From assembly GCA_040377305.1 (NCBI GenBank), contig JBEIPA010000007.1, forward strand, positions 32,001 through 96,000: 64,000 bases of DNA. Reading direction: 5' to 3'. How positions within the stretch are numbered: the stretch's first letter is position 1; every line of letters starts with the position of its first letter. The stretch is from Flavobacteriales bacterium (lineage in GTDB: Bacteria; Bacteroidota; Bacteroidia; Palsa-965). The notes beneath the pieces were generated by a model. That model was not told the DNA's origin, did no database searches, and saw only the letters and a program-made list of their open reading frames with translations. The position numbers and the translations under genes are program-made. Shown piece by piece: positions 1,194 through 59,522 of the stretch.

Positions 1194-1275
1194 GTAACAA
1201 AGTCGTGTTGAAAATTCCATAACCCCCCGGTAACTTTCAAAAAGGGCATTGCGTTACATTTGTAACAGAATCATT

Positions 1276-1551
1276 ATGGCATTTCGGGAAGATCTTCTCA
1301 AAAAGTACTTTGCTAAGGCAGATATCGGTGGAACACCGAGTATCAATGACCTGCGCGACCGTGAATTTAACGGGGAAGCGCTCTCTGCCGATGAGCAGTT
1401 GGCGTTGAGAACCTTTGACCGATACAGAATCGAACAATTGAACGGAATTTCTGACGATAAAGAATTCCATGAGCGTTACCGCCAATTGCAGGTAATGGCC
1501 AACCTCGGCGACTGGAGAGACTTCCTCAACATCGCGGGCGACAACAACTAA
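1276..1551 (+). CDS. Small hypothetical protein (~91 aa)
   Basis: ATG at 1276, natural amino-acid composition, fills an otherwise empty interval. Confidence 0.75.
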   Translation: MAFREDLLKKYFAKADIGGTPSINDLRDREFNGEALSADEQLALRTFDRYRIEQLNGISDDKEFHERYRQLQVMANLGDWRDFLNIAGDNN

Positions 1552-2418: not shown

Positions 2419-2502
2419 GATTTCGGACGTAGTTTAAATGCTTGGTTCAGTGATACTGTGTCCCGATCTCTTTACCTTCGGACTAGTAACACATCAGCAT
2501 TT

Positions 2503-3660
2503 ATGCCCGAATTCAAAGGATCAATCAGCTCCAAACTGCCTCGCGTAGGCACAACCATTTTCACCGTTATGTCTAAAATGGCGGCGGAACACAAGGCTAT
2601 TAATCTCTCACAAGGATTTCCTGACTTTGATTGTCCGCCGAAACTGATTGAGCTCGTGACGAAAGCAATGAAAGCCGGACACAACCAGTATGCTCCAATG
2701 CCGGGCGTGCTCGCGTTGCGCGAAGCAATTGCAGAGAAAACCGAAGCACTGTACGGAACAAAATATGATCCTGAAACGGAAGTTACCGTTACGGCTGGTG
2801 CAACACAGGCAATCTATACTGCAATTGGTGCTGTGATCCGTGAAGGAGATGAAGTGATCATTTTCGAGCCTGCATACGATTGTTACGAACCCGCAGTGGA
2901 ACTGAACGGCGGAACACCTGTTTTCGTTTCATTGAAAGCGCCGAACTATAACATCGATTGGAATGAAGTGAAGAAGCTGATCAATCACCGCACAAAGATG
3001 ATCATCATCAACACGCCGCATAATCCAACTGGTGCAGTAATGAGTGCTGATGATATGAAGCAGCTCGACAAACTCACGAAGAATTCCGACATCATTGTGC
3101 TTTCCGATGAAGTATACGAACACATTCTCTTCGACGGACGAACTCATGAAAGTGTTTCGAAGTATCCGGATCTTGCCGGTAGAAGTTTTATCGTGTCTTC
3201 ATTCGGAAAAACATTTCACACCACCGGGTGGAAGCTCGGTTATTGTGTGGCGCCAAAGCAATTGATGACTGAGTTTCGCAAGGTGCACCAGTTTCTGGTG
3301 TTCTCCTGCAACACGGCAATGCAGGTTGCTTGCGCAGAATTTCTGCAGGACAAAGATCACTACCTCGGTCTCGGACAATTTTATCAGGAGAAGCGCGATT
3401 ACTTTGTAAACCTCGTAAAAGGTTCCCGTTTTTCAATGGTGACTGCTCCGGGAACATACTTTCAACTGCTCCAATACAACAGTATTTCACAGGAGAAAGA
3501 CACAGATTTCGCTGTGCGTGTTCTGAAAGAGAACGGTGTAGCGGCAATTCCGATTTCCGTGTTCTACCACAAACCTGTTTACGATTACATGCTGCGTTTC
3601 TGTTTCGCGAAGAAAAATGAAACGCTTGAAAAAGCTGCAGAAGTGCTTTGTAAAGTTTAA
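2503..3660 (+). CDS. ybdL: PLP-dependent methionine aminotransferase (class I/II, YbdL-like)
   Basis: SKLPRVGTTIFTVMS..AINLSQGFPDF, NTPHNPTG, SDEVY, SFGKTFHTTGWKLGY. Confidence 0.93.
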   Translation: MPEFKGSISSKLPRVGTTIFTVMSKMAAEHKAINLSQGFPDFDCPPKLIELVTKAMKAGHNQYAPMPGVLALREAIAEKTEALYGTKYDPETEVTVTAGATQAIYTAIGAVIREGDEVIIFEPAYDCYEPAVELNGGTPVFVSLKAPNYNIDWNEVKKLINHRTKMIIINTPHNPTGAVMSADDMKQLDKLTKNSDIIVLSDEVYEHILFDGRTHESVSKYPDLAGRSFIVSSFGKTFHTTGWKLGYCVAPKQLMTEFRKVHQFLVFSCNTAMQVACAEFLQDKDHYLGLGQFYQEKRDYFVNLVKGSRFSMVTAPGTYFQLLQYNSISQEKDTDFAVRVLKENGVAAIPISVFYHKPVYDYMLRFCFAKKNETLEKAAEVLCKV

Positions 3661-3731: not shown

Positions 3732-4718
3732 ATGGCTTCTCCTCGCGCATTTTTTCTTTCACTGCTCCTGCTGATTTCCTTTGTAGTGAATTCACAAACT
3801 GATTCGCTCGTAAATGATTCTCTGTCTGCGGATGAGGAAGTCGTGCGAAAAGACACCGTGAAAGTGGGCGTGTACATCACTTCCATTTACTCGCTTGGAT
3901 TTGCAGAGAACGATTTCGGAATTGACTTCTGGGTTTGGTTCGTACATAAAGATCCGAATACTGATCCGAAGGAAACCATGGAAATATTCAATTCGGAAAG
4001 TCAGATTTTCGAATACGGAACCAATGAAGAAAAAGGCGATTACATGTGGTCCGTGCAGAAGTGCCGCGCTATGATCAAAAAGAATTGGGAGATTTCCCGC
4101 TTCCCGCTCGACGATCAAACGCTTGACGTTATTCTCGAAGAAACGGATCGCGATACTTCTGAGCTGGTATATATCGCCGACGTAGAAAATTCCAAGATCG
4201 ATCCTTCGGTTGATCTGAGCGGATGGACCGTAACCGAGTTTGACGTAATTCCCCTGGTAAAATCGTACAACACCACGTACGGCGACCCTACACTCACCGG
4301 CGAAAGTTCGTATGCCCGTCTCCAGTTCACTACAAAAATTACACGCGAAAGCGGACGAATTTTTCTGAAGCTCTTCCTCGGATTATACGTCGCGTTTCTG
4401 ATCGCACTTGCGGTGTTCTTCCTTGATGGTTCTGAAATCGGTGCACGTACATCGCTCGCCGTTGGTGCTTTGTTCGCTGCAGTTGGTAACAAGTACATTG
4501 TCGATTCATCCATGCCCGATCATACTTCGTTCACGGTGGTCGACAAAATTCACAATCTTACTTTCGCTTTGATTTTCATGAGTATTGTGTTCAACGTAAT
4601 TTCGAACGCATCATTCCGAAAAGGGAAAGCACAACTCGGACGACGAATTGACTACGGTGCATTCGTGTTCCTGATGCTTGCATACATCGTCGGCCATTTC
4701 TTCATAGTTTCAGATTAA
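3732..4718 (+). CDS. Pentameric ligand-gated ion channel (GLIC/ELIC-like, Pro-loop family)
   Basis: Signal peptide, beta-rich ectodomain with VKVGVYITSIYSL, Pro-loop RFPLDDQTL, LSGWTV, pre-M1 ITR, then four TM helices. Confidence 0.85.
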   Translation: MASPRAFFLSLLLLISFVVNSQTDSLVNDSLSADEEVVRKDTVKVGVYITSIYSLGFAENDFGIDFWVWFVHKDPNTDPKETMEIFNSESQIFEYGTNEEKGDYMWSVQKCRAMIKKNWEISRFPLDDQTLDVILEETDRDTSELVYIADVENSKIDPSVDLSGWTVTEFDVIPLVKSYNTTYGDPTLTGESSYARLQFTTKITRESGRIFLKLFLGLYVAFLIALAVFFLDGSEIGARTSLAVGALFAAVGNKYIVDSSMPDHTSFTVVDKIHNLTFALIFMSIVFNVISNASFRKGKAQLGRRIDYGAFVFLMLAYIVGHFFIVSD

Positions 4719-4723
4719 TCGCA

Positions 4724-5533
4724 ATGAATCCTGATTATCTCAACGTCGCAGCTATACAAACTTCTCTTCATTGGGAAGACAAAGAAGCTAATCTCCACAT
4801 GCTTGGAGAAAAGATCCGTCCATTTTCAGATCCTGTAGATGTTTTCATTCTGCCGGAGATGTTCACCACAGGTTTCAGTATGCGCGCGGAAAAATTCGCT
4901 GAGCCAATGGATGGTCCCACGCACTCGTGGATGCGCGAACTGGCGAAACTGAAAAACGCTGCGATCACAGGAAGCTTCATTGTGAAAGATGGAAGCAACT
5001 ACTTCAATCGGATGCTTTGGGTGAATCCCGATGGAAGTACGGTTCATTACGACAAGCGTCATCTCTTTCGCATGGGACAGGAAGATCAGCATTACGGAGT
5101 AGGAGAGAAGCGTGTGATTGTCGAGTACAATGGATGGAAAATCTGTCTGCAGGTTTGCTACGATCTTCGTTTTCCGGTGTGGTCAAGAAATCGCTACAGC
5201 CATGAAGAGGGGAAGATGGTAGCAGAATACGATACGCTCATCTACGTTGCGAATTGGCCCGAGCGCCGTTCTCATCCCTGGAAAACTTTGCTGATGGCGC
5301 GCGCAATTGAAAATGCTTGCTATGTGGTTGGTGTCAATCGGGTGGGAAATGATGGCAACTTTATCTATCACTCCGGCGATACTGCGGTATACGATTTCAA
5401 AGGAGCACTGGTAACCGGAGCTATGATTTCTACAGAGGAAATTATCACCGCACGTTTATCGAAACAAGACTTGCGTGATTATCGGAAAGCGTTTCCGGTG
5501 GGGCTTGATGCTGATCACTTCGAAATTCAGTAG
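4724..5533 (+). CDS. Nitrilase-family amidohydrolase, omega-amidase YafV-like
   Basis: LPEMFTTGF, YDKRHLF, VCYDLRFP give the E-K-C triad; ARAIENACY. Confidence 0.92.
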   Translation: MNPDYLNVAAIQTSLHWEDKEANLHMLGEKIRPFSDPVDVFILPEMFTTGFSMRAEKFAEPMDGPTHSWMRELAKLKNAAITGSFIVKDGSNYFNRMLWVNPDGSTVHYDKRHLFRMGQEDQHYGVGEKRVIVEYNGWKICLQVCYDLRFPVWSRNRYSHEEGKMVAEYDTLIYVANWPERRSHPWKTLLMARAIENACYVVGVNRVGNDGNFIYHSGDTAVYDFKGALVTGAMISTEEIITARLSKQDLRDYRKAFPVGLDADHFEIQ

Positions 5534-9918: not shown

Positions 9919-11604
9919 TTACTCCTTGATAATTTTTAGTGTGCGGGAAGTGTTCGTTCCGCTAACCTTCAGAAAGTAAATTCCTGCAGGACGATCAGCA
10001 AGATCAATGGTGTATGAAAATGCAGTTCCTTCCGGGTTCACCAAACTGCTTTGCATGATGCGACCACCCGCATCCAATAATTCAATGGTATAAGGTTCGT
10101 TGTTGCTATCCTGAAAATTCAGTTGAACAGAGGATGCTGTTGGATTCGGGTAAAAGGAGAAATTGTTTTCCGTAGCATCCTCAATTCCCGTGAATGAATC
10201 AGTAACGATGAACTGCGCCATCATCCCATTGTCTTCGTGAACGAGGTTGTGACAATGATACATGTATGGCATTGTATCGTTTGCGAAGTCCTCAAACTTC
10301 ATGATAACCTGCACCACTTCATTCGGGAGGATATAAAAAACATCTTTCAGTCCTCCTTCATACGCAGGTGGTTGATTGCCGTTTCGCGATAGGATGTAAA
10401 ATGGCACATCGTGTATGTGAATGGGATGCGCAATATTCGTGTTGTTTGTGAATTGCCATACCTCCAGATTGTTCAGTGGAATGGTGTCGTTGATCACCAT
10501 CATGTCGAACGCAAGAAAATTGATTGTGAAATTGGCCATGGTCGCAAACATGCCATTTCCATCCAGAGTTTTGTATCGGAGTGTATTGACATTCGCAATA
10601 TTCCAGGGTGTAACGTTTATCAGCGAGGAGGGAATTGTCGTCACAGGATTTCCCGTAGGAGCAACAACGTTAATCTGCATGATACCAAAATTAGTGGCGT
10701 TCAGAACGCTCGCACCGTTGGGCATTCCGCCACCTCCGGGTTCATTGTTAGCGAACGCAGAAGCGTAACTCATCATCACGAAATTATTTCCCTGGTCATT
10801 GGTGAGATCAAGGAGAATTTCGAATCGCTCACCAGATGCAATTTTCAATCGTGTTACAGGAACAGGTTGGCTCAGCAAACCGCCATCGGATGCAATGACA
10901 TAGAACGTGCGATTATCGCTGAACCCGAGATTGTAGCTTCTCACATTTGATCCGTTCAACACCCGTAAACGAACAACTTGCGCCGGCGCATCGAGATACG
11001 CGTGCATCGTTCCATTCACAACCATGGAATCTGCTAATCCATCAACGATCAAATCACCATTTGCATTGAACGTGCGATCCTGCAACACAACCGGAATATC
11101 ATCTGTTCCATACGTGCGCGGTAAATTCAAAGCGGCTTCAACCGTGTCTTTCACAATAATCATCCCAGCGAGACCCATATAAACCTGAGTGCCGGTGTTC
11201 ATGTGTAAATGCGGATGATACCAGCACGTAGACGCTGCATTGCGGATTCCGAATCCAACTTGCCAGGTTGTACCGGCATTAATTACATTATGCGGACCAC
11301 CATCCATTGTTGCAGGAATATGTAGTCCGTGCCAGTGCATTGTTGTAGTTTGTGTGAGATTATTCACCACAGCGATATTTACCGAATCATCTTTGTTCAC
11401 CACGAGTGTGGGTCCGAGATACGAACCGTTCACGCCATACGTAGCTGTATTATTCGCTCCAAAGAAATGATGTGAAGAATCGGCAACTGTGAGCGTGAAG
11501 TTGTTTCCGGAAATAGCAGCAGGAATTGCCAACGGGTTGTAGTACAACTGGGCATTTAACAGGGTTGTACAGGAAGTCGCGAGGAAGAGAAATAAGATTT
11601 TCAT
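9919..11604 (-). CDS. Multicopper oxidase (CueO/bilirubin oxidase-like) with T9SS type A CTD
   Basis: HWHG, WYHPH, HPIHIH, HCHNLVHEDNGMM copper motifs; YPNP...GIYFLKV...KIIK tail. Confidence 0.93.
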   Translation of the reverse strand: MKILFLFLATSCTTLLNAQLYYNPLAIPAAISGNNFTLTVADSSHHFFGANNTATYGVNGSYLGPTLVVNKDDSVNIAVVNNLTQTTTMHWHGLHIPATMDGGPHNVINAGTTWQVGFGIRNAASTCWYHPHLHMNTGTQVYMGLAGMIIVKDTVEAALNLPRTYGTDDIPVVLQDRTFNANGDLIVDGLADSMVVNGTMHAYLDAPAQVVRLRVLNGSNVRSYNLGFSDNRTFYVIASDGGLLSQPVPVTRLKIASGERFEILLDLTNDQGNNFVMMSYASAFANNEPGGGGMPNGASVLNATNFGIMQINVVAPTGNPVTTIPSSLINVTPWNIANVNTLRYKTLDGNGMFATMANFTINFLAFDMMVINDTIPLNNLEVWQFTNNTNIAHPIHIHDVPFYILSRNGNQPPAYEGGLKDVFYILPNEVVQVIMKFEDFANDTMPYMYHCHNLVHEDNGMMAQFIVTDSFTGIEDATENNFSFYPNPTASSVQLNFQDSNNEPYTIELLDAGGRIMQSSLVNPEGTAFSYTIDLADRPAGIYFLKVSGTNTSRTLKIIKE

Positions 11605-11689
11605 AGCGATCAAAACTAGGAAATGAATGGTGATGATCACATGACGGAAATCAGGTAACGGATGTCACGGTACTATTCGGGTTCCATTC

Positions 11690-11947
11690 TAAATCGCGTC
11701 AGCGATCACGCCGTGTCCAAATGGGCAATGGGCATTAGCACCTAACACCTCCGTTTCACCGCGTCGCCGTGTAAAGCGTCGCAGACAACCACTAATTCGC
11801 AAACACCATACTCTTCCTGTCCACTAGTAAATCGCTTCAGCGATCACGCCGTGTCCAAATGGGCAATGGGCATTAGCACCTAACACCTCCGTTTCACCGC
11901 GTCGCCGTGTAAAGCGTCGCAGACAACCACTAATTCGCAAACACCAT
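11690..11947. repeat. 120-bp tandem direct repeat (period 138) including the last codons of the M28 gene
   Basis: 11690-11809 vs 11828-11947 differ at 1 position; partial third copy at 8019-8105. Confidence 0.9.
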
Positions 11948-13660
11948 CGATTTCGTTTCAACGGTTGTTCCATCAATCACCAGCGAATAGAAGAAAGTTC
12001 CTGTCGCGCCATAACCATGCGTGTACAGCACTTCATTCAATCCCGGTTGTAACGTCAGCGGAATTTCTTCCACGAGTCTTCCCTGCAAATCGGTTATTGT
12101 AAGCGATGCTTTCTTGTACGACGGCATCTGATCAACCTGGAAGAGTATGTACGTTGCTTCGTCAAACGGATTCGGTTGATTCTGCATGAGGGAAACTCCC
12201 GGAATCATCTGTTCGTATTCCTCGATTCCAACCGGAGAAATCTGAATCTCACGCGAAGGAATACTTTCAATTCCATTCGTATCAACCGACATTACGCTCA
12301 CACGATACCATGCTGCTGTGGGAACATCAATGGTGTCTGTCAATGTTCCGGTGAAGGTGTAAACGGAATCCCAATCGTTCGTTAATGTGCGAACACCAAC
12401 ACGATACGTTGCGTATTGCGTTTGTTGTGTGATCGTCACTACGAGATCACTGTCATTCACACCAAGAACAAAATCCGGAATCTTCGGACCGATCGCAGCC
12501 ATCGCAATTGCATTCGCGTTGATCACCGTGTTTCTGGCGAGGTAATTGAAATCGATGTAGAAACTGTCGACGATCTGATCGTTGTTGGTATCGACTCCGA
12601 GTGTATCGCGATAACTGTGCTGCCGATCGCTGTAACCCGGTTGGGATACATCTGCATCGCCGTGTTCATTCGCTGCTGTCAGGCGCATGGCCGTGAATAA
12701 ATTCTGCCGGAACGGAATATGATCACCACCGCGACCGGTTCTGTCTTCCGGCGACTGTATGCGTATATCCGTTTGCACGGCGACGAACGGAGCAATTTCT
12801 TCTTTGTATTCGAGCTTGATAAAACGGCAATAGCCTTTGTGTGGAGAGTTGAAGCTCCCTGCAGAAAACAAACGCACGCCAACACTGTCGATGTGTCCCA
12901 ATCCCGGACAGCTCGGTGCAGAAGAAGTAATTCCACACATGATTCCACCGGTAACATCGTTGTTCTGTACGGCAGCAATCGGAATGTCGAGTTGATTGCA
13001 ATAATCTGCGAATGCTTCTGCACCATACAAACCTTGCTCTTCGCCAATCGTAACGAGAAAGACGATCGTGTGATTGTAACTGTATTTGCTCATCACACGC
13101 GCGAGTTCAATGACCAATGCAGTTCCGGTTGCGTTGTCTTCCACACCTTCTGCCTGGCACAACGAATCGCACAAGCTCTCACAACGCGAATCCATGTGTG
13201 CTTCTACAAAAATCACGCGATGGTCGGCAGTGTCCATTCCCGGAAGCACCGCGAAAATATTCCTGTGTTGCGGTGTTGTGCAAATCAATTGATCAAATTG
13301 CAGATACGAGGGAATCAATCGATTCTCATTCGCCAAACTAAACTCCATGAACTTCTGGTAAACCCAACGTCGCGACGCACCAACACCAAACGTATTCGAC
13401 ACCGTATCAGAACCTGTATTGCGATTCCCGAACGAAGCCAACGTGATGATATAACTCTTCAGCGAATCTGGATTTACTTCCGACATGATTCCTGTGGCAA
13501 TACTATCCGGATGATTGATCACAGTGCTCGCCATAAACTGCGCTGGATCGTAATTTCCGCGCATCACATCTTCTGCGAGTGGAGTGGTGGAGATGATGTT
13601 GGTTTGGGAATAACCGGCGAATGGAATTGCGAAGAATAAAAGGATGTAGATATGTTTCAT
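11930..13660 (-). CDS. M28 family metallopeptidase with T9SS CTD
   Basis: AHMDSR, GVEDNATG, GEEQGLYGA, GDHIPF; QNQPNPF-type CTD. Confidence 0.9.
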   Translation of the reverse strand: MKHIYILLFFAIPFAGYSQTNIISTTPLAEDVMRGNYDPAQFMASTVINHPDSIATGIMSEVNPDSLKSYIITLASFGNRNTGSDTVSNTFGVGASRRWVYQKFMEFSLANENRLIPSYLQFDQLICTTPQHRNIFAVLPGMDTADHRVIFVEAHMDSRCESLCDSLCQAEGVEDNATGTALVIELARVMSKYSYNHTIVFLVTIGEEQGLYGAEAFADYCNQLDIPIAAVQNNDVTGGIMCGITSSAPSCPGLGHIDSVGVRLFSAGSFNSPHKGYCRFIKLEYKEEIAPFVAVQTDIRIQSPEDRTGRGGDHIPFRQNLFTAMRLTAANEHGDADVSQPGYSDRQHSYRDTLGVDTNNDQIVDSFYIDFNYLARNTVINANAIAMAAIGPKIPDFVLGVNDSDLVVTITQQTQYATYRVGVRTLTNDWDSVYTFTGTLTDTIDVPTAAWYRVSVMSVDTNGIESIPSREIQISPVGIEEYEQMIPGVSLMQNQPNPFDEATYILFQVDQMPSYKKASLTITDLQGRLVEEIPLTLQPGLNEVLYTHGYGATGTFFYSLVIDGTTVETKSMVFAN

Positions 13661-13733
13661 GGCAACCACAAGTTACAAATTCCGTCATTGTTTTGAGAAT
13701 CACCTGTTCCAGACTAATTTGCAGACACTTCGT

Positions 13734-14503: not shown

Positions 14504-17500
14504 TTAAAACATCGCCCTCACCTGCGCCGTCCCCGTATGTATCGGCTTATTATCCGGCGTCTTCCTTCCTTCATAGCCCAATGTCAATTGCAATCCACCA
14601 CCCAGCGATTGTTGCCAGCCCGCTTTCCAGGTAAAATTTTCTCCGGGCTTTAGTCCTTCGAGCATTTCGTAGCCTATGGTGGAATTTACGGTGCCGTCAT
14701 AAGCGATTCGGAAGTAATTGAATTCTGCATCAAGCGAACCTTTCGATGCTTTAGTCGCGCGAAACTCAACACCGAATTTCTGAATAGCTGTTTTTTCTCC
14801 ACCGAGATCGGCATCGTTTTTCTTCTCAGAGTAACGGTACAGCAAACTCACCCGGAAAGTTGTTCCCGGTTGGTAACTCAACTTTGGTTCGGCATCGAAA
14901 TAGTTGATGAAGTAATTCCGCGTAGAGAAATATTCGGAAGTGTTGGATTTTTTACCGCGCTTGTATTCGGTGATGAGTGAGAATGCACGGGTTACGTTCC
15001 AGCGTACACGAACCTGGTTGTACTCGTTGCCGCGAGATTCCAATCCATTGGTGAGAAGATTTTTCCCTTTCACACTCTGCCACGTGTGATCAATGCCAAA
15101 CTTGCTCGAAAGCTGATTGAAGAAAACCGTGTTGCGAACTGTTGCGTTCAATGTCACGAGTGCAGTATCACCGGCATCATCGATCTGCGGGAGATACGCG
15201 TGTTCGAACTGTTCACTCTGTGTTTTGCGATCAACGCGATATGCTGCCTGATCAGAAAAGCGTGTGAGGAATTTGCGGAATCCTTTTTTGCTCTGCCAGG
15301 TCTGCGGTGTGCGCAAACGAATGCTCTGTGAAAACTGATTCGTGTACACTTTTACATACTGATTCGTCGGCGTGTAAACGCGGATGTATAGCGCCTGATC
15401 AGAGAACAACGCGATTTCAAATTCGTTGAGCTCTTTCACGCCGTTGCTGTTGTAGTCGGTCCACGCATACGCGCCTTGCCCTGCCGGAACTTCGAGGTAG
15501 AAAAACTCTTTCTTCACTTCGAGGCCCGAGCCAGCTTCGTAGAACGTGTTGAGATCGATGGCTCCTTTGAACAGTTTGATGGAGTATTCGATACGACCGA
15601 CCACCGTATTATCCGGTTGTGATTGCGTGATGAGATAATTCCGGATGTCGAGCTTACGATAACTTGCGGTGATGTTCAGGCGTTGATTCTTCAGCTGATT
15701 AAATCCAACAGTAGCACCGATGTTTTCACCGAACGTAGCCAGATCAAGTTTGGTGTTCATCGGCAACCAATCACTGCGTTGTTTGTAGAATCCGCGAACG
15801 AATGTTTTGGATGAATCACCAATGAGCATGTACGATTCCCATTCGATGTAGCCGAAACTTTGCGCTTGTAGTGTATCGCTGTTGGGACGATGTACATTGC
15901 TGAATTCAATTTCTTCCCAACCGCCAATGGAAATATGCTTCGTCAGCGGAATTGAAATCTGCGCACGCTGGCGACTAAAATCGGTTTTACCATACGCGCC
16001 GGTGGATGTCAGGTAACTCGCATTAAGTGTTGCACGAACACGCTTGTGATTCACGCCCAAAAGAATTCCGTTTTTGATTCCGGTGTACTGCGCGCCTTCG
16101 TTGAACGCAGAAAAATCGTAACCGGTGATGAATTTGCCCTTCGTTGATGCATAACGGAAATTCGAAATCACCATGTGTTGATCTGTACTCGGCTTGCGTG
16201 TCGAATTCCAACCCAGATTCCAGTCGCGTTCGAATTCAACGGGACGATACCGTTCTACAAACGTGAAGTTCTTGCTCATGTACTCGTACTTCACGGCTAG
16301 CGAAAACTCAACTGAATCATTCACCCGGAATTTCTTTCTGTAACCGAACGATCCGGCGTAACCCTGATCGTCTTCACTGTTGATCGGTGAAAAAGTATTC
16401 AGATCGTAATTGCTCAACGCTGCTTCTGCCGTGATGCCACCTGATTTGGTGTTGCGTTCTCCACCGAAAGTCACCATCTGTCGTTTCTTCGGTGTCACGA
16501 TCAAAATCACAGGCTCGTAATCGCCTTGCGGAACTCCATTCACCGGGGCAGTCCACTCAAACACTTTACCGTTCGCGGCAGAAGTAATCTGCCGATAGTT
16601 TCCGTTGTTCGGACCCACATACGAGAATGCAGCACGCCAATGCGCAAGTTCAGAATCGGTCGAGTACACAAACACATTCGGATAAAGAACAGCATTCACT
16701 AACGTATCCACTTGTCGGTATCGTACTTCCGTATCAGAGAATCCAACACTATCAGAACCCGGGATCACCGCCTGATTCAATGTATCACCAACTTCCGAGA
16801 GAATGAGAACGTCATTCGGCGTGAGCGATTGTTGTACCGGTTGGTTCTTGTGATCCTGTTCGGAGTAAACATTGAGTGTAAAGCGAGTGGTTTTCAGCGG
16901 AATGTTTTTGCCATTATCAATTCCGGGCATAGGTGAAGTATTTTGCCAGGTAATTGCGCTATGAATCAGGGAGCGTGAATAATTTCTGTCGCTGTACTGA
17001 AACTCCACAACAATCCGCTTGTCTTTCGTGATGAGCTGCTTCGCGGTGAACGTAACTTCTGCCGTGTTGTAGTCGATGATGTAATCGTTGTCTTGTCCGC
17101 GTACCATCAGCCTTCCATCGACAAAAACTTTCTCCGTTCCCGAAAGCACAATGATGAACAATTCATTCTCTGCACCACGCAGGCGATACGGACCTTGATT
17201 TCCTTCTACGCCCTGAATAACATTTCGCGCAAATTTTCCTTTCGAAAGTGCTGCAGCTCCGGAGACGCGCAGTTTCGTTCCGAGTGAGTCATTTTTAGTT
17301 CCAACAACCGGACGTGCTGGCGATTGTCTTTCGTTCTGTGTGATGGGAACAACTGTGGTGAACGATAAACCTTGTCCGCGCTTGTTGAATTTCATGAAGT
17401 ACGAATTCGGCCGCTCCGTAAAAAAATCTCCTGCAATCAACTTGGTAGTCGGCGATGAAATCTGAATGAAGACGCGATCGAATTCCTGAAGCTGCTGCGT

Positions 17501-18064
17501 TGTTCCGTCGGCTTGTATGGGAAGATTGTCGTCTGTCGCAACCATCATCAGGTCGACATTGTCCGTAAGCCTACCTGAAATCTGCAGATTCAAATTCGAG
17601 TTAACGGAAACATCGCGCGTATTTCCGAATGAAATTCCCCGCGACAAACTTCCGCTCTTGTTCAGTCCGCCCATTGCAAACGGATCTTCGGTTTTCGATT
17701 TCGGATTATACGTAAACGGATTCACACGATTGTCCGGACTCGATGTCATTGCTCCCTGATTCTTGTGCGATCGTTCCTGCACAAACAAAAGCGGAAATAC
17801 ATCATACGAAACGGTGATGCTGTCTGCGCTTGTGTTTTTCAGAATCAGCAATGCAGCGGGAGTATTCAGCGTGTAGTCAACCGAATCAACCAGCGTGCGC
17901 GAACCAATTTTCGCTTTGAATGTTCCCGGAATTACACTGAGCGTGTCGATTTGTATTGTATCGTTAGTCGCCGAAAAAGTTTTTTCGCGTTTAGGAAAAA
18001 ATCCTTGCGACGAAGCGTCAACCGCACAGAACACCAATAACAATACAATGAAGATGCGGATCAT
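14504..18064 (-). CDS. Large conserved Bacteroidota outer membrane protein (hypothetical)
   Basis: Signal peptide; SGSLSRGISFGN, G.TQQLQEFD, GNQGPYRL, DYIIDYNTAE; ends QVRAMF. Confidence 0.85.
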   Translation of the reverse strand: MIRIFIVLLLVFCAVDASSQGFFPKREKTFSATNDTIQIDTLSVIPGTFKAKIGSRTLVDSVDYTLNTPAALLILKNTSADSITVSYDVFPLLFVQERSHKNQGAMTSSPDNRVNPFTYNPKSKTEDPFAMGGLNKSGSLSRGISFGNTRDVSVNSNLNLQISGRLTDNVDLMMVATDDNLPIQADGTTQQLQEFDRVFIQISSPTTKLIAGDFFTERPNSYFMKFNKRGQGLSFTTVVPITQNERQSPARPVVGTKNDSLGTKLRVSGAAALSKGKFARNVIQGVEGNQGPYRLRGAENELFIIVLSGTEKVFVDGRLMVRGQDNDYIIDYNTAEVTFTAKQLITKDKRIVVEFQYSDRNYSRSLIHSAITWQNTSPMPGIDNGKNIPLKTTRFTLNVYSEQDHKNQPVQQSLTPNDVLILSEVGDTLNQAVIPGSDSVGFSDTEVRYRQVDTLVNAVLYPNVFVYSTDSELAHWRAAFSYVGPNNGNYRQITSAANGKVFEWTAPVNGVPQGDYEPVILIVTPKKRQMVTFGGERNTKSGGITAEAALSNYDLNTFSPINSEDDQGYAGSFGYRKKFRVNDSVEFSLAVKYEYMSKNFTFVERYRPVEFERDWNLGWNSTRKPSTDQHMVISNFRYASTKGKFITGYDFSAFNEGAQYTGIKNGILLGVNHKRVRATLNASYLTSTGAYGKTDFSRQRAQISIPLTKHISIGGWEEIEFSNVHRPNSDTLQAQSFGYIEWESYMLIGDSSKTFVRGFYKQRSDWLPMNTKLDLATFGENIGATVGFNQLKNQRLNITASYRKLDIRNYLITQSQPDNTVVGRIEYSIKLFKGAIDLNTFYEAGSGLEVKKEFFYLEVPAGQGAYAWTDYNSNGVKELNEFEIALFSDQALYIRVYTPTNQYVKVYTNQFSQSIRLRTPQTWQSKKGFRKFLTRFSDQAAYRVDRKTQSEQFEHAYLPQIDDAGDTALVTLNATVRNTVFFNQLSSKFGIDHTWQSVKGKNLLTNGLESRGNEYNQVRVRWNVTRAFSLITEYKRGKKSNTSEYFSTRNYFINYFDAEPKLSYQPGTTFRVSLLYRYSEKKNDADLGGEKTAIQKFGVEFRATKASKGSLDAEFNYFRIAYDGTVNSTIGYEMLEGLKPGENFTWKAGWQQSLGGGLQLTLGYEGRKTPDNKPIHTGTAQVRAMF

Positions 18065-18128
18065 TCGTCGTATAAAGTTAAGGCTATTCGCGCTCAGTTT
18101 TGGTTTCATCTGTAATCCGCAATCAGAA

Positions 18129-49889: not shown

Positions 49890-50807
49890 TCAAAATAGAG
49901 ACTTTGAACCTTCTTTCTTCAACCCATTTGCATTGAATCGCACAGCAATGATCAACTCGTGCGTTCCGGTTGAGTAGTTACCAAGATTTGTCGTTGTGAA
50001 ATCGTACGCGTAGCTCAGTTGCATATCTCTCCAGAGAAAACCAAGGTTCATGGAAATTGCATCGAGGTGACGATAACCTCCGCCAACCCACACTTTGTCT
50101 TTGTAGAATGCACGAACACCAAGATCAAACTGGAACGGAACCGGAGAAACCAATTTACCGAGTGCAGATGCTTCGAGTTTGAAGTCTTCACCAATTGGCT
50201 GACGATACCCCGCCATGAAATAATAGTGACGATTCATCACACTGGTTGTACTCGCTGAGTAATCGAAGAACTTCAGTTTGTTCTGCTGAATCTGAAGGCA
50301 TGATCCTCCAACCCAGAAACGATCGTTGTACAAATAGAATCCTGCAGAGAAATCGGGAACAAGAACAGATTGCAATGCATTCACCAATGTTAAGTCTCCC
50401 GGATCATGCAACGTAATTTTTTGTCCGTCGATCATGAATTGAAGAATTCCTGCATTCACACCCATTGATAAAGTGAGATTCTCTTTCAATGGCGCATGAT
50501 ACGCATACGACATGTAAAATCCGGTTCTGCGTGTTGGACCAACAATGTCAGTGAACAATTGCCCTCCAACACCCATGTGATCCCATTTCAACGGACCATG
50601 CACACTGAGATTATAGGTACGCGGTGCATCTGTAATTCCGCCCCACTGGTAACGATTGGCCGACATGCCCAGGAAGTAAGCTTCTTTTCCTCCAATAGCA
50701 GGATTCATCACATAATCATTCACCATGTATTGACTGAAATGCGGAGTCTGCTGAGCTGATAGAGCCAGAGAACATACGCCTGCAAAAAGTGCGAGTAGTT
50801 TTTTCAT
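49890..50807 (-). CDS. Type IX secretion system membrane protein, PorP/SprF family
   Basis: P.FSQYM.N...NPA..G, RYQW.G...AP, YAYDFTT..L....GTHE. Confidence 0.95.
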   Translation of the reverse strand: MKKLLALFAGVCSLALSAQQTPHFSQYMVNDYVMNPAIGGKEAYFLGMSANRYQWGGITDAPRTYNLSVHGPLKWDHMGVGGQLFTDIVGPTRRTGFYMSYAYHAPLKENLTLSMGVNAGILQFMIDGQKITLHDPGDLTLVNALQSVLVPDFSAGFYLYNDRFWVGGSCLQIQQNKLKFFDYSASTTSVMNRHYYFMAGYRQPIGEDFKLEASALGKLVSPVPFQFDLGVRAFYKDKVWVGGGYRHLDAISMNLGFLWRDMQLSYAYDFTTTNLGNYSTGTHELIIAVRFNANGLKKEGSKSLF

Positions 50808-50819
50808 GTCTCTGTCTCC

Positions 50820-53800
50820 TTATCTCATTATGGTTAAAGGTCCGGTGAATACTTCCGGGAACATCGGATCATTCAACTTGATAATGTAGTAGTAAGTTCC
50901 TACCGGCAAATCTTTTCCGTTGTATTGTCCGTCGAATGGCGTGTTGTATCCAACTGAACGGAACAACATGATTCCCCAGCGATCATACACTTCAATTTCG
51001 CATTCAGGGAAGAGGAAGATATTGTCGATTTCCCAAATATCATTCGTTCCATCACCGTTCGGAGTGAATCCGTCAGGGAACCAGATCGACGGAACAATGT
51101 CAAGCACCATGGTATCACTTGCTGTACATCCTGTGCTGTCTGTAACAACGAGAATGTAAGTTGTTGATGTCATTGGTCCAGCGACAGGATTTCCGGTTGA
51201 AGGATCACCAAGTCCTGTTGAAGGTCCCCATGCGAATGTTGCACCACCCGGTCCGGCAGGAGTGCCACCAATTGTTGTGGTAGTTCCCTGCAGGATTGAT
51301 TGATCAGGACCTGCATCTGCGAGCGGTTGAGGTAATGATGTAACAAGAACGGTGTCTGTATCGGTACATCCGTTGTTGTTTACAGTGAGAATGTACGTGT
51401 TCACACCTGTTGTTGGAGCAACAGTTGTGGTTACGGAAGAACCTACAATGTTACCTGCAAGATCTGTCCACGTGTAGGTGAGTGCATTCGCGCTGAGACT
51501 GCCGTCAAGAAGAATTTGTCCTGCTACACAAGCAGAAGTGTCGTTACCCGCATCCGCAAAGATTGTTGTTTGCGCACCCACAACAATAGTGTCGAGCGTT
51601 GAACAACCATTTGCATCCGTGATCAACACGGTGTAAGAACCGGAAATAACTCCTGTTACATCTTCCGTTGCTGCGGTGAATGGTGCAGGGCCAGTCCATA
51701 CAAACGTGTATGGTGTTGCTCCACCAGAAACAGTGATGTCAATTGATCCGTCAGGAGAATTGTTACACAATGCGTCGACTACAACCGGTGCTCCGAGTAC
51801 GAGTACATTCGGAGATACAATTGAATCGCTGGTTGTAGTTGTACAACCGTTTGCATCTGTGATCGTGCACGTGTAACCCATGCTGCACAAGTTGATCGCA
51901 GTCTGAGTTGTTTGTGCCGTTGGATTCCATACATACGTGTAAGGCAATGTTCCTCCTGATGCAAGAGCCATGATTGATCCATCGCAAGCACCTGTACACA
52001 TTTCTGCTGTTGTGAATGGGAATGATGTTGCAAGTTGTGATGGCTGACCAATATTTACTGCGCCAGTGCTTATACATCCATTCACGTCAGTGACCTGAAT
52101 GAAATATGTTCCCGGACATAATCCGTTTGCGGTATCAATGGTTGCTCCCGTGCTCCAGTTGTATGTGAATGGACCTGCACCACCGGTTACAGTTACATAA
52201 CCTTGTCCGTTACAATCGCCGAAGCAAACAACATTCGAAGCGGATGTGTTCATTACGACACTGGAATTCACATTGCTGATCGGAATCACAACGTTGCGCG
52301 TGCATCCGGTAGCATCAGTAATTGTCACGGTGTAGAGTCCTGCACACAATCCTGTGATCGTAGAAGTAGTTTGTCCACCAGGAGCCCACAGATAGGTGTA
52401 AGGACCTGTGCCGCCCGACGGATTCAACGAGATTTGTCCTAAACAGAATCCGCAATCCGTATTTATGATTGTCTGGTTTGCGATGATTTGCGTTGGAGAA
52501 GAAATCACTGCGCTGTCGGTGAACACGCATCCTGCAGAATCCATAATCTGCACATAATACGTTCCGGCAGCTAATCCATTCACAGTTGAAGTTGTTTGTG
52601 CTCCCGGAACCCAGAGGTACGTGTAAGGTGGAATACCTCCAACAGGATTTACAATTGCAGTTCCATCATTCGCTCCAAAGCAAGTAACGTCTGTCGTAAC
52701 TAATCCGGAAGAAGTAACACCACCTGAAGAAGGAACTGCGATGGAGAATGTATTTGTGCATCCGGTTCCATCTGTAATCACAACAGAGTAAACACCCGCA
52801 CACAATCCACCTGGACTCGAACTGGTCGATCCGTTACTCCACAAATACGTGTAAGGAGGAACACCACCGCTTGCATTAAGTGTAATGTTTCCGTTGCATT
52901 GGCCACACGTGGTAGGAATCACCGCTGGGTTTATAACAATTGCACTCGGTTGTGAGATAGTAACTGTTGATGTTGCCGAACATCCTGCAGCATCACTCAC
53001 CATAACCTGATAAGTACCGATGCACAATCCTGTTGCAGTTGAAGAATTTTGTCCGAGCGGATCGTTCCACTGATAAGTGAACGGAGCCATGCCCGATGAA
53101 ATGTTCACCGTTGCCCATCCGTCGCATACGGCATTGCACGTTGGACCAGAAGCGAGTGTAGACGCGGTGAGTGTATTCCATGCACCAATGGAGATTGTAT
53201 CAATCTGGGTACAACCTGAAGCGTCTGTTATAGTGAGTGTATATGAACCAACCGCTTGTCCTACAATAGTAGCAGTAGTTTGTCCGCCCGGCATCCACAA
53301 GTAACTGTAAGGGCCGGTTCCTCCGCTAGGATTTGCAGTTGCACTTCCATCGGAAACTCCGTTGCAGGATGCATTCGACACAAACACATTAGCCAGAATT
53401 TGCGGAGGACTTGTAATTGTTACGGGAGCAAAACGAATACATGCGTTCGAGTCAGTCATCTGAAGGAAGTAGTTTCCACCACACATACCTGCAAGAATGT
53501 TTGTTGTCTGTCCTCCCGGATTCCAGAGGTAAGTGTAAGGAGAAGTTCCACCGACAGGAGTTACGTTCGCGGTACCGTCACAAATATTCGGACACGAAGT
53601 TCCTGTGGTGATTACGTTTTCACCTGTTGGTCCACCGCTGTTGTTCATCGCAATTACAAATGTGTCCTGACAACCGAGAGCATCCGTTACCGTTACTGTG
53701 TAAAGTCCGGCACAAACATTCACCTGGTTAGCTACCGGAGGCAATCCCCCTGTCCACGCGTACGTGTAAGGCGCAGCGCCACCACTCGGTGAAACGTTCA

Positions 53801-56800
53801 TCGTTCCATTGCACACTCCACAATTTGCAGGAGCACTTGCAACACTGAGCGAAAATGAAGCAGCAGGGGTTACAGTTACGACCTGAACGTCGGTACAACC
53901 ATTCGCATCACGAACCGTTACGGTATACGTGCCTGAAGAAATTCCGGAAATCGTTGACGTTGTTTGTCCACCAGGAGCCCACAGGTACTGATAAGGACCG
54001 GTACCACCAACAGGAGTAGCGGTTGCTGTTCCGTCTGCGCCACCTCCGCAAGACGGCGATGTGAATGACGTATTCGCCTGCAATAAACTCGGTGAAGTTA
54101 TTGTTGCGGTGTTCGTTTGAATACAACCGTTGTTGTCTGTAACTGTTACTGTGTATCCACCCGAACATAAACCAGTTGCTGTGATTGCAGTTCCGCCAGA
54201 TGGAGACCAGTTGTATGTGTAACCCGGAGCACCACCTGATGGATTCACAGATGCAAATCCATCACAAGAACCAAAGCAGCTTACCGGAGCAGCACCCATA
54301 CTCAATACCATGGATGTTGGTTGCAGAATTGTAACTGAATTTACAATCTGACATCCGTTCGAATCTGTTGAAGTAATACTATACGCACCCGCACACAATC
54401 CGTTTACAGCTGGTGTTGTTTGTCCGCCGGGGGACCACATGTACAAGTAACCCGGTACACCGCCAGTTACTGTTGTTCCTGCAGTTCCGTCGCAGTTTCC
54501 ATTGCACAATGCATCTGTGGAAGAAACGCTTTGCTGCAACGCTGGTGGTTCTGTAATTGTAACTGAATCAACATTGGTACAACCGTTGATGTCGCTTACG
54601 TTTAACGTGTAGGTGCCCGGACACAAATTCACGATCGAAGAAACAATCGGACCTGCTGACCAGATGTAAGAGAACGGTGCCGAACCACCCGTGATCGTTG
54701 ATATTGCTGTTCCGTTACACTGTGCATTACACACAATGTTGGTTGAAGTAATGTTCAGCAACATCGGTGCGGGTTCAGTAATTGTCACCGTAATTGTTTC
54801 TGTGCAACCGTTGGCATCCGTAACAGTAACCGTATATGATCCGGCGCACTGTGCAGAAATTGTCTGTGTTGTTTGTCCACCTGGCATCCAGAGGAATGTA
54901 TATCCTGCTGTTCCGCCGGTTACAGTTACTGTTGCAGATCCGTCGCAAACCGCATTACAACTACACCCTGTTGGAAATCCTACAACTTGAATTGCCGGAG
55001 GATCAGTAATAATAATCTGATCGAATGTGATACAACCTACTGCATCTGTGACCTGAACAAAAATTGTATCAGCGCAAATTCCGGTTACCGCTGGAGTTCC
55101 ATCACCTGTTGGATTTCCCGGTAGCCAATCGTAACTGAATGGTCCAGCTCCGCCCGTAACAACTGTTGTTGCTGTTCCGTCGCAGGTGCTGTCGCAAGTT
55201 GCATTCGTACTCGATGAACTCAGAGTTGGTCCGTTAATGTTGCTGACTGCGAATTGGGTGTTTGTTGCGCAACCGGTTGAGTCCGTAATTGTAACCGTAT
55301 AAATTCCCGGACACAAGTTGGTGATGCCCGACGTTGTTGCTGCACTCGGACTCCATGAATAGGTGAGAGGTCCTGATCCTCCCGACGCGGTAGTAGAAAT
55401 TGTTCCGTCGCACAATGTACAATTCGCATCGGTAACACTTCCGTTTGCGGTAATCAGTGTGGGTTCTGTTATCGTTACAATGATTGTTGTATCACACGAA
55501 AGCGAATCGTTGATAGTACACGTGTAAGAGCCCGCACATTGGTTTGTGATTGTTTGTGTAGTTTGTCCACCCGGCAGCCAGAGATACGTGTACGAACCTG
55601 TTCCGCCAATTGCACTTGCGCTTGCGGTTCCGTCACACAATGAATTACAGCTCACGTTAGTTGTAGCACCGGTCACAACAAGTTGCGGTGGATTGTTGAA
55701 TGTAATTTGTGTTGTGCTGAAACATCCGTTGGCATCAGTTGCAGTTACTGTCCAGGTTCCCGCACAAAGACCAGTGATGTTTTGTGTTGTGAAGTTTCCA
55801 GGCTGCCACAAATAGGTATATGGATTTGCTCCGCCTGAAGCATTCGCGCTTGCTACTGCATCACAAACGCCGAAACAACTTGGTGTGCTTCCCGAACTGG
55901 TAATTGTAATATTTACAACCTGAGTAATTGTGACAGAAGCTGTAGTTGTACAACCTTGCGCATCGGTGACTGTACACGTGTACGTTCCTAAACACAAATT
56001 TGTTGCTGTTGGATTTGTTCCACCAGCAGGCGACCAGAAATAGGCATACGGAGAAGTTCCGCCCGCCACATTTACAGATGCGGAACCTGTACACAATCCG
56101 CAGCTCGATGAAGTTGCAGTTACAGCTGCAGAAAGTGGCTGTGGTTGTGTAATGCTTATGATGCTTTGTTGTGTACAGCCATTAGCGTCGGTCACGGTGA
56201 GCGTATAGGATCCTGCACACAATCCGGAAACGTTTTGTGTGGTGAGAGAGCCCGGCATCCACAAATAGCTGTAAGGACCTGTTCCGCCCGCAGGGTTTGC
56301 ATTCGCAGTTCCGTTACAAACTCCGGAACAACTTGCGTTCACCGATGTAACGTTGTTAGCAATCGCCTGTGGTTCGGTGATGGTGATGGTAACACTTCCT
56401 GTACAGCCGAGTGCGTCTGTAATCAAACACGTGTACGTTCCCGCACATTGGTTCGTAATTCCTGGTGTGGTTTGTCCACCCGGCGACCACACGTATGTGT
56501 AAGCAGGTGTTCCGCCCGATGCAGATACAGAAGCCGCACCGTTGCACAAACCATTACACGTTACATCAGTAACTGATTGTTGAATGGTAAGCGCTGTTGG
56601 TTGAGTGATCGTAACGTTTGCCTGCGCGGTACATCCGTTTGCATCTGTTACGGTTACTGTGTAAGAGCCTGCACATTGATTGGTAATTGCTGCTGTTGTT
56701 TGGTTGCCTGGATTCCATAAGTATGTATACGCAGCCGTACCACCGGAAACGTTTGCAGAAAGTGTCGCGTTACATACGCTGTTACACGTCAGGTTGCTTG

Positions 56801-59135: not shown

Positions 59136-59315
59136 ATGTATTTCGATATGAGGTGTGTGCCGTTTGCCGTAAAGTTCGGATAATGTGGTTCCACCAAAAG
59201 AAGATTCGCGGTTAAACTTTAACAGCGAAATGTGGAAAGTGCTCCAAAGGAGCTCCTTCGTAGCGGGGGTTACCTTTCTTAGCCTAACTTTGTACTCGAA
59301 ATATAGCCAATCTCC

Positions 59316-59522
59316 TTGACAAATCACAGCGAAAACCCAGCGAAAACGTCAGAAATCCGCGTTCTGATCAACATAGACTCACATTTTCTGGACGAGAAGG
59401 AGATCCGTTCTGCTGCACGCTTCGGAAAAGGGACGAAGATATTCCTGAATAACGGGGAAGAAATCGTTGTGAATGTGTCTTATGATCGGGTTGCGGACAT
59501 CCTGAGCAATCTTTCGAAGTAA
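59316..59522 (+). CDS. Small protein resembling FlbD or a LytTR half-domain
   Basis: TAACTTTG box at 59285-59292; TKIFLNNGEEIVVNVSYDRV motif. Confidence 0.55.
   Translation: MTNHSENPAKTSEIRVLINIDSHFLDEKEIRSAARFGKGTKIFLNNGEEIVVNVSYDRVADILSNLSK

Follow-up and report, generated by a model that had tools for sequence, protein, structure and literature searches.

The window, the whole 64,000-nucleotide stretch of DNA that was analyzed, carries near its start an open reading frame on the plus strand that runs without an internal stop from an ATG at position 3732 to a TAA ending at position 4718 (328 amino acids). Based on sequence and a fold search, this gene (3732..4718) encodes a stand-alone pLGIC (pentameric ligand-gated ion channel) subunit of the Cys-less type. 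It lies between two enzyme genes on the same strand, one for a methionine aminotransferase (2458..3660; PRK09082, above cut-off) that ends 71 bp before it and one for a carbon-nitrogen hydrolase (4724..5533; PRK10438 amidohydrolase, above cut-off) that starts 5 bp after its stop. We take these enzymes to be YbdL and YafV, respectively, the hydrolase presumably being a YafV/omega-amidase. The earlier note on this DNA had placed the host in the Bacteroidota, and the presence of type IX secretion system genes in the window bears this out, as do the labels of related loci (74 of the 77 locus rows in the tree are labeled Bacteroidota).

The protein begins with a predicted signal peptide of about 21 residues (3732..3794), which contains a hydrophobic helix at residues 4 to 15; it was called from hydropathy and the structural model, with the cleavage site placed by eye. 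The AlphaFold2 model (pLDDT 86.4, pTM 0.72; 53-sequence alignment) continues with a low-confidence linker up to residue 37, followed by strands at residues 41 to 205 and four helices. The strands form the predicted periplasmic beta-sandwich domain (3852..4346), which includes the Pro-loop signature F124-P125-L126-D127 (4101..4112). We presume that standard beta-strand numbering carries over to the model. The first transmembrane helix, M1 (residues 208 to 230; 4353..4421), has Gly217 at its kink position. M2 (residues 236 to 260; 4437..4511), numbered with R239 as 0', presents G-2', A-1', R0', S2', G6', F9', G13', N14', K15', Y16', and D19'. M3 (residues 269 to 296; 4536..4619) contains the invariant residues D271 and H274, and M4 (residues 300 to 327; 4629..4712) is preceded by a very short, basic M3-M4 loop. 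All of these features are on the plus strand; the helix boundaries come from the model, supplemented by alignment for M1 to M3.

Sequence matches in the PDB, Foldseek, and a wide fold search all agree with the pLGIC identity first proposed from the sequence. The best PDB sequence matches are GLIC chimeras and GLIC itself, with an E value of 9e-10 for the single protein and 1e-28 for a 97-sequence family profile, and the four segments originally picked out as GLIC-like (residues 45 to 55, 123 to 131, 160 to 170, and 195 to 205) all align to GLIC. Foldseek matched the model to GLIC, glycine receptors, and GABA-A receptors (E value, 4e-21). Among the 48,161 chains covered by the wide fold search, ranks 1 to 34 were occupied by pLGICs or their domains, and the first unrelated chain had a Z score of 9.9. 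The top scores, for GluCl (24.5; rmsd 3.2 over 281 aligned residues), GABA-A (23.9), and GLIC (23.6), are tied within 1, followed by the bacterial channels DeCLIC (22.4), sTeLIC (21.9), and ELIC (20.9). A fold other than a beta-sandwich plus four transmembrane helices had been named in advance as the result that would overturn the identification; the predicted fold, at the scope of a single subunit, does consist of such a sandwich and four such helices. Assembly into a five-subunit pore is likely.

The channel has every sequence and fold feature of the Pro-loop superfamily that was tested. The motif that defines this superfamily (PMC4795631), [F/Y]PxD in the loop between beta6 and beta7, occurs as F124-P125-L126-D127, and the pre-M1 arginine (R205), the beta9 tryptophan (W165), and the M2-M3 proline (P262) are all present. 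Strictly speaking, it does not count as a Cys-loop receptor, a type in which two cysteines close the beta6-beta7 loop; there is only one cysteine, Cys111. The search with the Neur_chan_LBD model that the earlier note had proposed does return a match, but at 16.5 bits it falls below the cut-off of 26, and the scores against the NCBIfam model LGIC_1 (NF033918; 63.3 bits versus a cut-off of 500) and TIGR00860 (38.5 bits versus 280.2) fall below theirs as well. Such below-cut-off scores account for the "hypothetical protein" labels on its relatives.

Among characterized channels, GLIC of Gloeobacter violaceus (3EAM and 4HFI) is the best match to the channel in both sequence and Foldseek searches. 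Like the channel, it is stand-alone and Cys-less, combines a beta-sandwich with four transmembrane helices, and has the Pro-loop, the Asp-Arg pair, and a short M3-M4 loop. The two share only 16 to 18% identity, and the channel differs in being 18 residues shorter before loop A and lacking the WxD/WxP tryptophans, in its longer loop C, in having acids and aromatics in place of the pocket arginines, in the glycine in M1, in an M1-M2 linker that is two residues longer, and in having no Glu-2' and Phe instead of Ile at 9'. For the membrane part alone, sTeLIC and DeCLIC are the best, if weak, matches (E value, 0.005); they share Gly 6' and the M3 Thr/Asp residues with the channel but have an acid at 2', the M1 proline, and a shorter M1-M2 linker, and DeCLIC has additional N-terminal domains. 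sTeLIC is cation selective. The anion-selective Cys-loop receptors GluCl, GABA-A, and glycine receptor resemble the channel in their top fold scores, in A-1'/R0', and in M1-M2 linker length, whereas the channel, at 12 to 16% identity to them, has no Cys-loop disulfide, Pro-2', or tryptophan pair.

Several points that the earlier note listed as unusual are all real in the sequence, but most are family traits, common to the majority of 150 distant representatives. These are the best 150 of the representatives clustered at 50% identity, with a median identity of 31% to the query; at an E value of 1e-30 or lower, the subfamily comprises 907 such clusters. Gly217 indeed occupies the M1 proline column, 12 residues after the pre-M1 Arg205, and glycine is found there in 109 of 149 representatives. 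This position is proline in 77% and glycine in 5% of the 561 pLGICs of a published set (PMC4795631), and a 2005 survey gave the residue that bends M1 as P, G, or S (PMC549065), so that Gly217 counts as a helix-bending residue. M2 does start with G237-A238-R239 (-2', -1', and 0'), with no Glu-1', and F248 is 9'; Phe 9' occurs in 142/149 representatives, compared with 13% of the published set, in which Leu 9' accounts for 75% (PMC4795631). The loop-A WxP segment is missing, as claimed (WxP occurs in 4/149), but the ligand residue of loop A is retained as Glu84, which shares its column with GLIC Arg77. The missing stretch before this residue includes both tryptophans of the WxD/WxPD pair, and the beta2-beta4 link of GLIC is 18 residues longer than that of the family profile. 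In the channel the corresponding slots are H72 and P79, 7 residues apart, compared with a separation of 25 residues for the tryptophans of GABA-A subunits (PMC11432007); none of 147 distant representatives has tryptophan in the second slot. Of the coupling residues, the best 150 representatives have F/Y124 in 150, P125 in 150, D127 in 148, W165 in 136, and R205 in 147.

This compact subfamily has already been inventoried. Our list of its features, which is our own compilation and not a published definition, consists of WxW in beta2, a short beta2-beta4 link without WxP, a GDP motif in loop C, the M1 glycine, Phe 9', and GNKY in M2, and the channel has all of them. Compared by eye with the channel, the S1 Dataset alignment of PMC4795631 contains at least three subfamily members, Q11U47 of Cytophaga hutchinsonii and G8APG3 and D3P3G1 of Azospirillum. 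All three share with the channel the WxW in beta2, the lack of WxP, the short beta2-beta4 link, and the GDP loop-C motif, and Q11U47 and D3P3G1 also share the M1 glycine and the GNKY motif. Immediately before M2, Q11U47 has E-S-R and G8APG3 has D-P-R, with an acid at -2', in contrast to G-A-R in the channel, whereas D3P3G1 has G-S-R; acid-free members are thus already among those inventoried. The three are listed there as "uncharacterized proteins," and the sections of that text available to us do not describe the subfamily. No functional study of it turned up in a literature search with limited access to subscription papers; as a sign that none exists, this result is weak. Cultured relatives are encoded on Azospirillum and Streptomyces replicons at 26 to 36% identity to the channel, and G8APG3 is approximately identical to one Azospirillum match in the plasmid collection (L116). 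Judged from sequence comparison, the M1 glycine, Phe 9', and the loss of WxP are marks of a large, already inventoried subfamily, and this gene, which comes from an uncultured genome, is an unexceptional member of it. What we add to the published inventory is a conserved ELIC-like pocket and a branch with G-A-R set apart from acid-bearing relatives.

The putative ligand pocket is formed by Y48, W67, W69, E84, W106, E136, Y179, Y183, and Y194. The median column conservation of the ectodomain is 0.36, and apart from the coupling core, its best-conserved columns map to the orthosteric site. Distant representatives retain an acid at position 84 (134/149) and at position 136 (142/150) and aromatics at positions 67 (146/149), 69 (149/149), 106 (135/149), 179 (144/150), 183 (149/150), and 194 (146/150). 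All seven pocket slots tested are filled in 109 of 149 representatives and at least six in 141, and among 186 closer homologues they are filled with a single exception. These homologues are a nonredundant set drawn from 121 proteins plus open reading frames from related loci.

The arrangement of this pocket resembles that of ELIC from Dickeya/Erwinia; the two proteins share 13% identity. In the family profile, E84 aligns with GLIC Arg77, a loop-A residue (bioRxiv 2023.03.03.530963), with the position number of ELIC E77. The spacings P125-E136 and Y194-R205 are both 11, as are P120-E131 and F188-R199 in ELIC, and the alignment pairs Y48 with position 23 and W67 with position 42 of GLIC, which correspond to ELIC F19 and Y38 by the published F19=Y23 offset. 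The ELIC slots E77, E131, Y38, F19, Y175, and F188 thus correspond to E84, E136, W67, Y48, Y179, and Y194, in a register set by spacing and published numbering instead of residue-level superposition and off by one for Y179-Y175. The ELIC-like combination of two principal-side glutamates with loop C and loop D aromatics is present in E84, E136, Y179, Y194, and W67, with Y179 in approximate register. The channel differs from ELIC in its loop-B threonine, in the additional tryptophans at 69 and 106, and in having no acid at the start of M2. ELIC itself has Glu-1'. We take position 106 of the channel to correspond to AChBP L112. The slot of the loop-B aromatic, which is needed in ELIC (F133; PMC3119659), is T138 in the channel and aromatic in only 4/149 representatives. 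A loop-B aromatic and a beta6 aromatic have been described as mutually exclusive (PMC549065), and the tryptophan at 106 together with the missing loop-B aromatic fits this trade-off; W106 on beta6 may therefore substitute for the loop-B aromatic. In ELIC, a primary-amine-gated channel described as cation selective (PMC12637682), the amine is bound beside E77 and E131, and mutating these residues abolishes activation (PMC3119659). From the conserved pairing of acids and aromatics, we infer, as the best reading of the subfamily pocket, that it points to a small amine or other cationic organic ligand.

Taken as a whole, the locus is best explained by a homopentameric, amine-gated pLGIC that serves as an accessory chemical sensor, an explanation to which we assign roughly an even chance. 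The signal peptide would export the protein and place the beta-sandwich in the periplasm, where five identical subunits would assemble. The subunits would be identical because the genome has no second copy: a profile search over all six frames of the genome found the channel in single copy, and a heteropentamer partner was rejected on this basis. The ligand would bind to E84, E136, and aromatics of both faces, much as primary amines do in ELIC. The Pro-loop, the Asp-Arg pair, and the M2-M3 proline are elements that couple binding to the pore in pLGICs, and in this channel the Pro-loop, D127-R205, and Pro262 would act in this way. A ring of Phe 9' would form the gate. The G-A-R branch has no acid between -3' and 13', which would make it less selective for cations than its relatives. 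The likely role would be that of an accessory sensor of chemicals that changes membrane potential or ion content.

The pore of this branch raises the possibility that the same gating serves an anion channel, in which replacement of the acidic -2' ring would allow chloride to pass as in glycine and GABA-A receptor pores. Among 52 homologues at 56% identity or more, G-A-R occurs in 51 and Gly-2' in all 52, whereas 132 of the 134 next relatives have Asp or Glu at -2' (D-P-R in 114). The G-A-R sequences form one clade on a long stem (FastTree support, 1.0; SH-aLRT, 100 in a quick tree), and the branch is genus level. The start of M2, including Ala-1', Arg0', and a residue at -2' and without Glu-1', aligns ungapped with GABA-A alpha1 and glycine receptor alpha1, with an M1-M2 linker of the same length as theirs and two residues longer than that of GLIC. 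Ala-1' and Pro-2' are stated anion determinants (PMC13335744), and the acid-free stretch of the channel contrasts with Glu-2' of GLIC (PMC3590989) and with the acid that sTeLIC and DeCLIC align at 2'; the M3-M4 loop has a net charge of +4. However, Pro-2' is replaced by Gly237, so the full P-A-R signature is absent; Glu-4', Asp-7', and Asp19' are invariant in the branch; and the periplasmic domain has a net charge of -15. The -2' site also drifts freely in the family, as 69 of 149 distant representatives have no acid at -2', -1', 1', or 2'. M3 Thr29'/Asp26', considered as a further anion mark, was rejected because both residues also occur in sTeLIC and DeCLIC. The earlier note had drawn a hint of anion selectivity from the start of M2. 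G-A-R is there, but an anion-type motif is generally insufficient to predict selectivity in prokaryotes (PMC4795631), so that the hint stands as one candidate reading; such motifs had been noted in six bacterial sequences in 2005 (PMC549065). For the G-A-R branch we tentatively favor a preference for cations, short of an even chance, and hold poor selectivity and a preference for anions to be somewhat less probable each. An anion-selective version of the channel is accordingly a doubtful one. The fuller proposal of an anion-selective, amine-gated branch, whose glycine/GABA-receptor-like filter would have been reached independently through a change from D-P-R to G-A-R in an ectodomain without the tryptophan pair, is a degree less probable still.

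The pore has further peculiarities. Gly 6', Gly 13', Lys 15', and Tyr 16' make for an atypical pore, and across residues 251 to 257 (4482-4502, plus strand) and 271 to 274 (4542-4553, plus strand), G13' is found in 182 of 186 closer homologues and N14', K15', Y16', Asp271, and His274 in all 186. An intramembrane lysine beside a histidine and an aspartate suggests a polar network within the membrane.

GLIC, sTeLIC, and DeCLIC share the fold of the channel but are opened by changes in pH or calcium (for GLIC, see bioRxiv 10.1101/2023.03.03.530963), and thus a conserved pocket need not be the physiological trigger. If the channel were likewise gated by pH or metal ions, as three of the four characterized bacterial pLGICs are, the pocket would be structural or bind only a modulator. 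The closest solved sequences (GLIC over the whole chain and, weakly, DeCLIC and sTeLIC for the membrane part) are consistent with such gating, as is the acidic ectodomain (36 D+E versus 17 K+R), and the buried, invariant Lys254, His274, and Asp271 could titrate. However, the GLIC pocket has arginines at 77 and 133 and a single principal-side aromatic, whereas the subfamily retains two acids and many aromatics at approximately 30% identity, which argues for a bound organic ligand. We consider pH or metal gating unlikely.

The genomic setting of the channel gene fits an old, dispensable component. Of the genomes searched, 10 of the 27 in the genus carry the channel, as do none of 8 others in the family and 2 of 26 others in the class; across the genus, it is dispensable. 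All 10 carriers in the genus have the methionine aminotransferase gene just upstream, and at 10 of the 14 loci in the genus that lack the channel, the aminotransferase and amidase genes directly adjoin. Carriers and noncarriers are interleaved on the aminotransferase tree, which is consistent with repeated loss. Recent horizontal arrival is disfavored, as the GC and GC3 contents of the channel gene match those of its neighbors and the channel and aminotransferase trees have their main split in common. Old acquisition followed by repeated loss seems to fit better. The gene is under purifying selection: in the four measurable pairs of nine, dN of 0.105 to 0.30 against dS of 1.5 to 2.4 gives a dN/dS of approximately 0.05 to 0.13 (four other pairs had saturated dS, and one was left out because of an in-frame stop). 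That stop is a TGA in the channel match of one genus member (G019; L086, G019:C115:464-1414/L005), possibly marking a pseudogene or an assembly error. Given that only 5 bp lie between the channel stop and the next start, the channel is probably cotranscribed with the downstream gene; a scan for promoters and terminators returned counts at chance level.

These neighbors invite the idea of a sensor tied to the aminotransferase/amidase operon and gated by an amino acid, amide, or ammonium that the enzymes handle. The shared strand and short gaps, the aminotransferase gene within approximately 1 kb upstream in every carrier of the genus, the position of an Azospirillum sp. B510 relative between substrate-binding-protein genes and alanine racemase, and the fusion of one relative to a periplasmic binding domain all lend it some weight. 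However, the enzyme genes commonly adjoin without the channel, unrelated genes (for an acyltransferase and a 181-amino-acid protein) also enter the interval, and neither enzyme gene was found in any of 72 more distant loci, within fetched flanks that were in some cases short. In GABA and glycine receptors, a loop-D arginine binds the ligand carboxylate; this slot is Trp69 in the channel. Beyond the genus, no recurrent partner gene was found among 80 related loci, no neighbor family occurred in more than 8 of the 72 distant loci, and the neighbors that do recur are housekeeping genes of kin. Thus, the gene context gives no clue to the ligand. We retain a functional tie between the channel and the enzyme genes beside it only as a lesser alternative and judge it quite improbable; the channel gene looks instead like an accessory passenger in the aminotransferase-amidase interval. 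Least probable of all, and very unlikely in our estimation, is a nonconducting or decaying protein with a pLGIC fold, for although the tryptophan pair thought to stabilize the Cys-loop receptor ectodomain (PMC11432007) is lost, the distribution is patchy, and one copy has a stop, the reading frame is intact and under purifying selection, the coupling residues are all retained, the upper M2 is nearly invariant in the 186 homologues, and the same losses are common to hundreds of clusters.

Other genes around the channel were also recorded. In several genus loci (L003 to L007), the channel is followed by a gene for an acyltransferase-family membrane protein (HGSNAT_cat/Acyl_transf_3), which was not found in the genome of the window. 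The 181-amino-acid protein that moves in and out of the aminotransferase-amidase interval has no Pfam match. A 100-amino-acid open reading frame at 1249-1551 (plus strand), with no Pfam or NCBIfam match, is in place in many genus members at 62 to 85% identity. On the minus strand of the window, 9919-11640 encodes a multicopper oxidase that bears a type IX secretion tail, 11930-13669 encodes an M28 peptidase, and 14504-18109 encodes a 1,201-amino-acid protein with a signal-like N terminus, a C-terminal phenylalanine, and no Pfam match at 1e-8 that resembles a large outer membrane protein. A 2,835-amino-acid SprB-repeat adhesin with a CHU_C signal (49890-59327, minus strand), followed by a PorP/SprF gene, forms an ordinary type IX secretion cargo pair.

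Among distant relatives, the member on plasmid pAB510b of Azospirillum sp. B510 (L115:2480-12508) lies in a same-strand run with genes for a peptide ABC substrate-binding protein, a TPR protein, and alanine racemase; the run continues with a second substrate-binding protein, an MFS transporter, and GNAT genes, and the record holds two matches. This neighborhood echoes those described in PMC549065, and the strain, being cultured, would be well suited to a ligand screen. In Azospirillum brasilense Sp7 (L116:19-6864), the member directly follows type VI secretion genes (IcmF, ImpA, and Hcp) and a UPF0114 gene, which is probably incidental. Rare fusions join a member to a periplasmic binding protein domain (P0271, 749 amino acids) or to TPR repeats (P0270, 640 amino acids); only these 2 were found among 7,995 long candidates scored, which is weak evidence.

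Bacterial pLGIC models are few (GLIC, ELIC, sTeLIC, and DeCLIC), and those whose selectivity could be checked are cation channels. As of PMC4795631, none of the microbial pLGICs had a known biological role. The subfamily described here is large and lies below annotation cut-offs, its strongly conserved pocket focuses the search for a ligand on small cations, and it has cultured hosts, including Cytophaga hutchinsonii and Azospirillum. Together with its relatives that bear an acid, the G-A-R branch forms a natural pair, with which the 2005 question of anion-selective bacterial pLGICs becomes directly testable. If the branch should prove to be both anion selective and amine gated, inhibitory receptors would gain a small bacterial model, and the branch would form, with its relatives, a pair for studying how charge selectivity flips.
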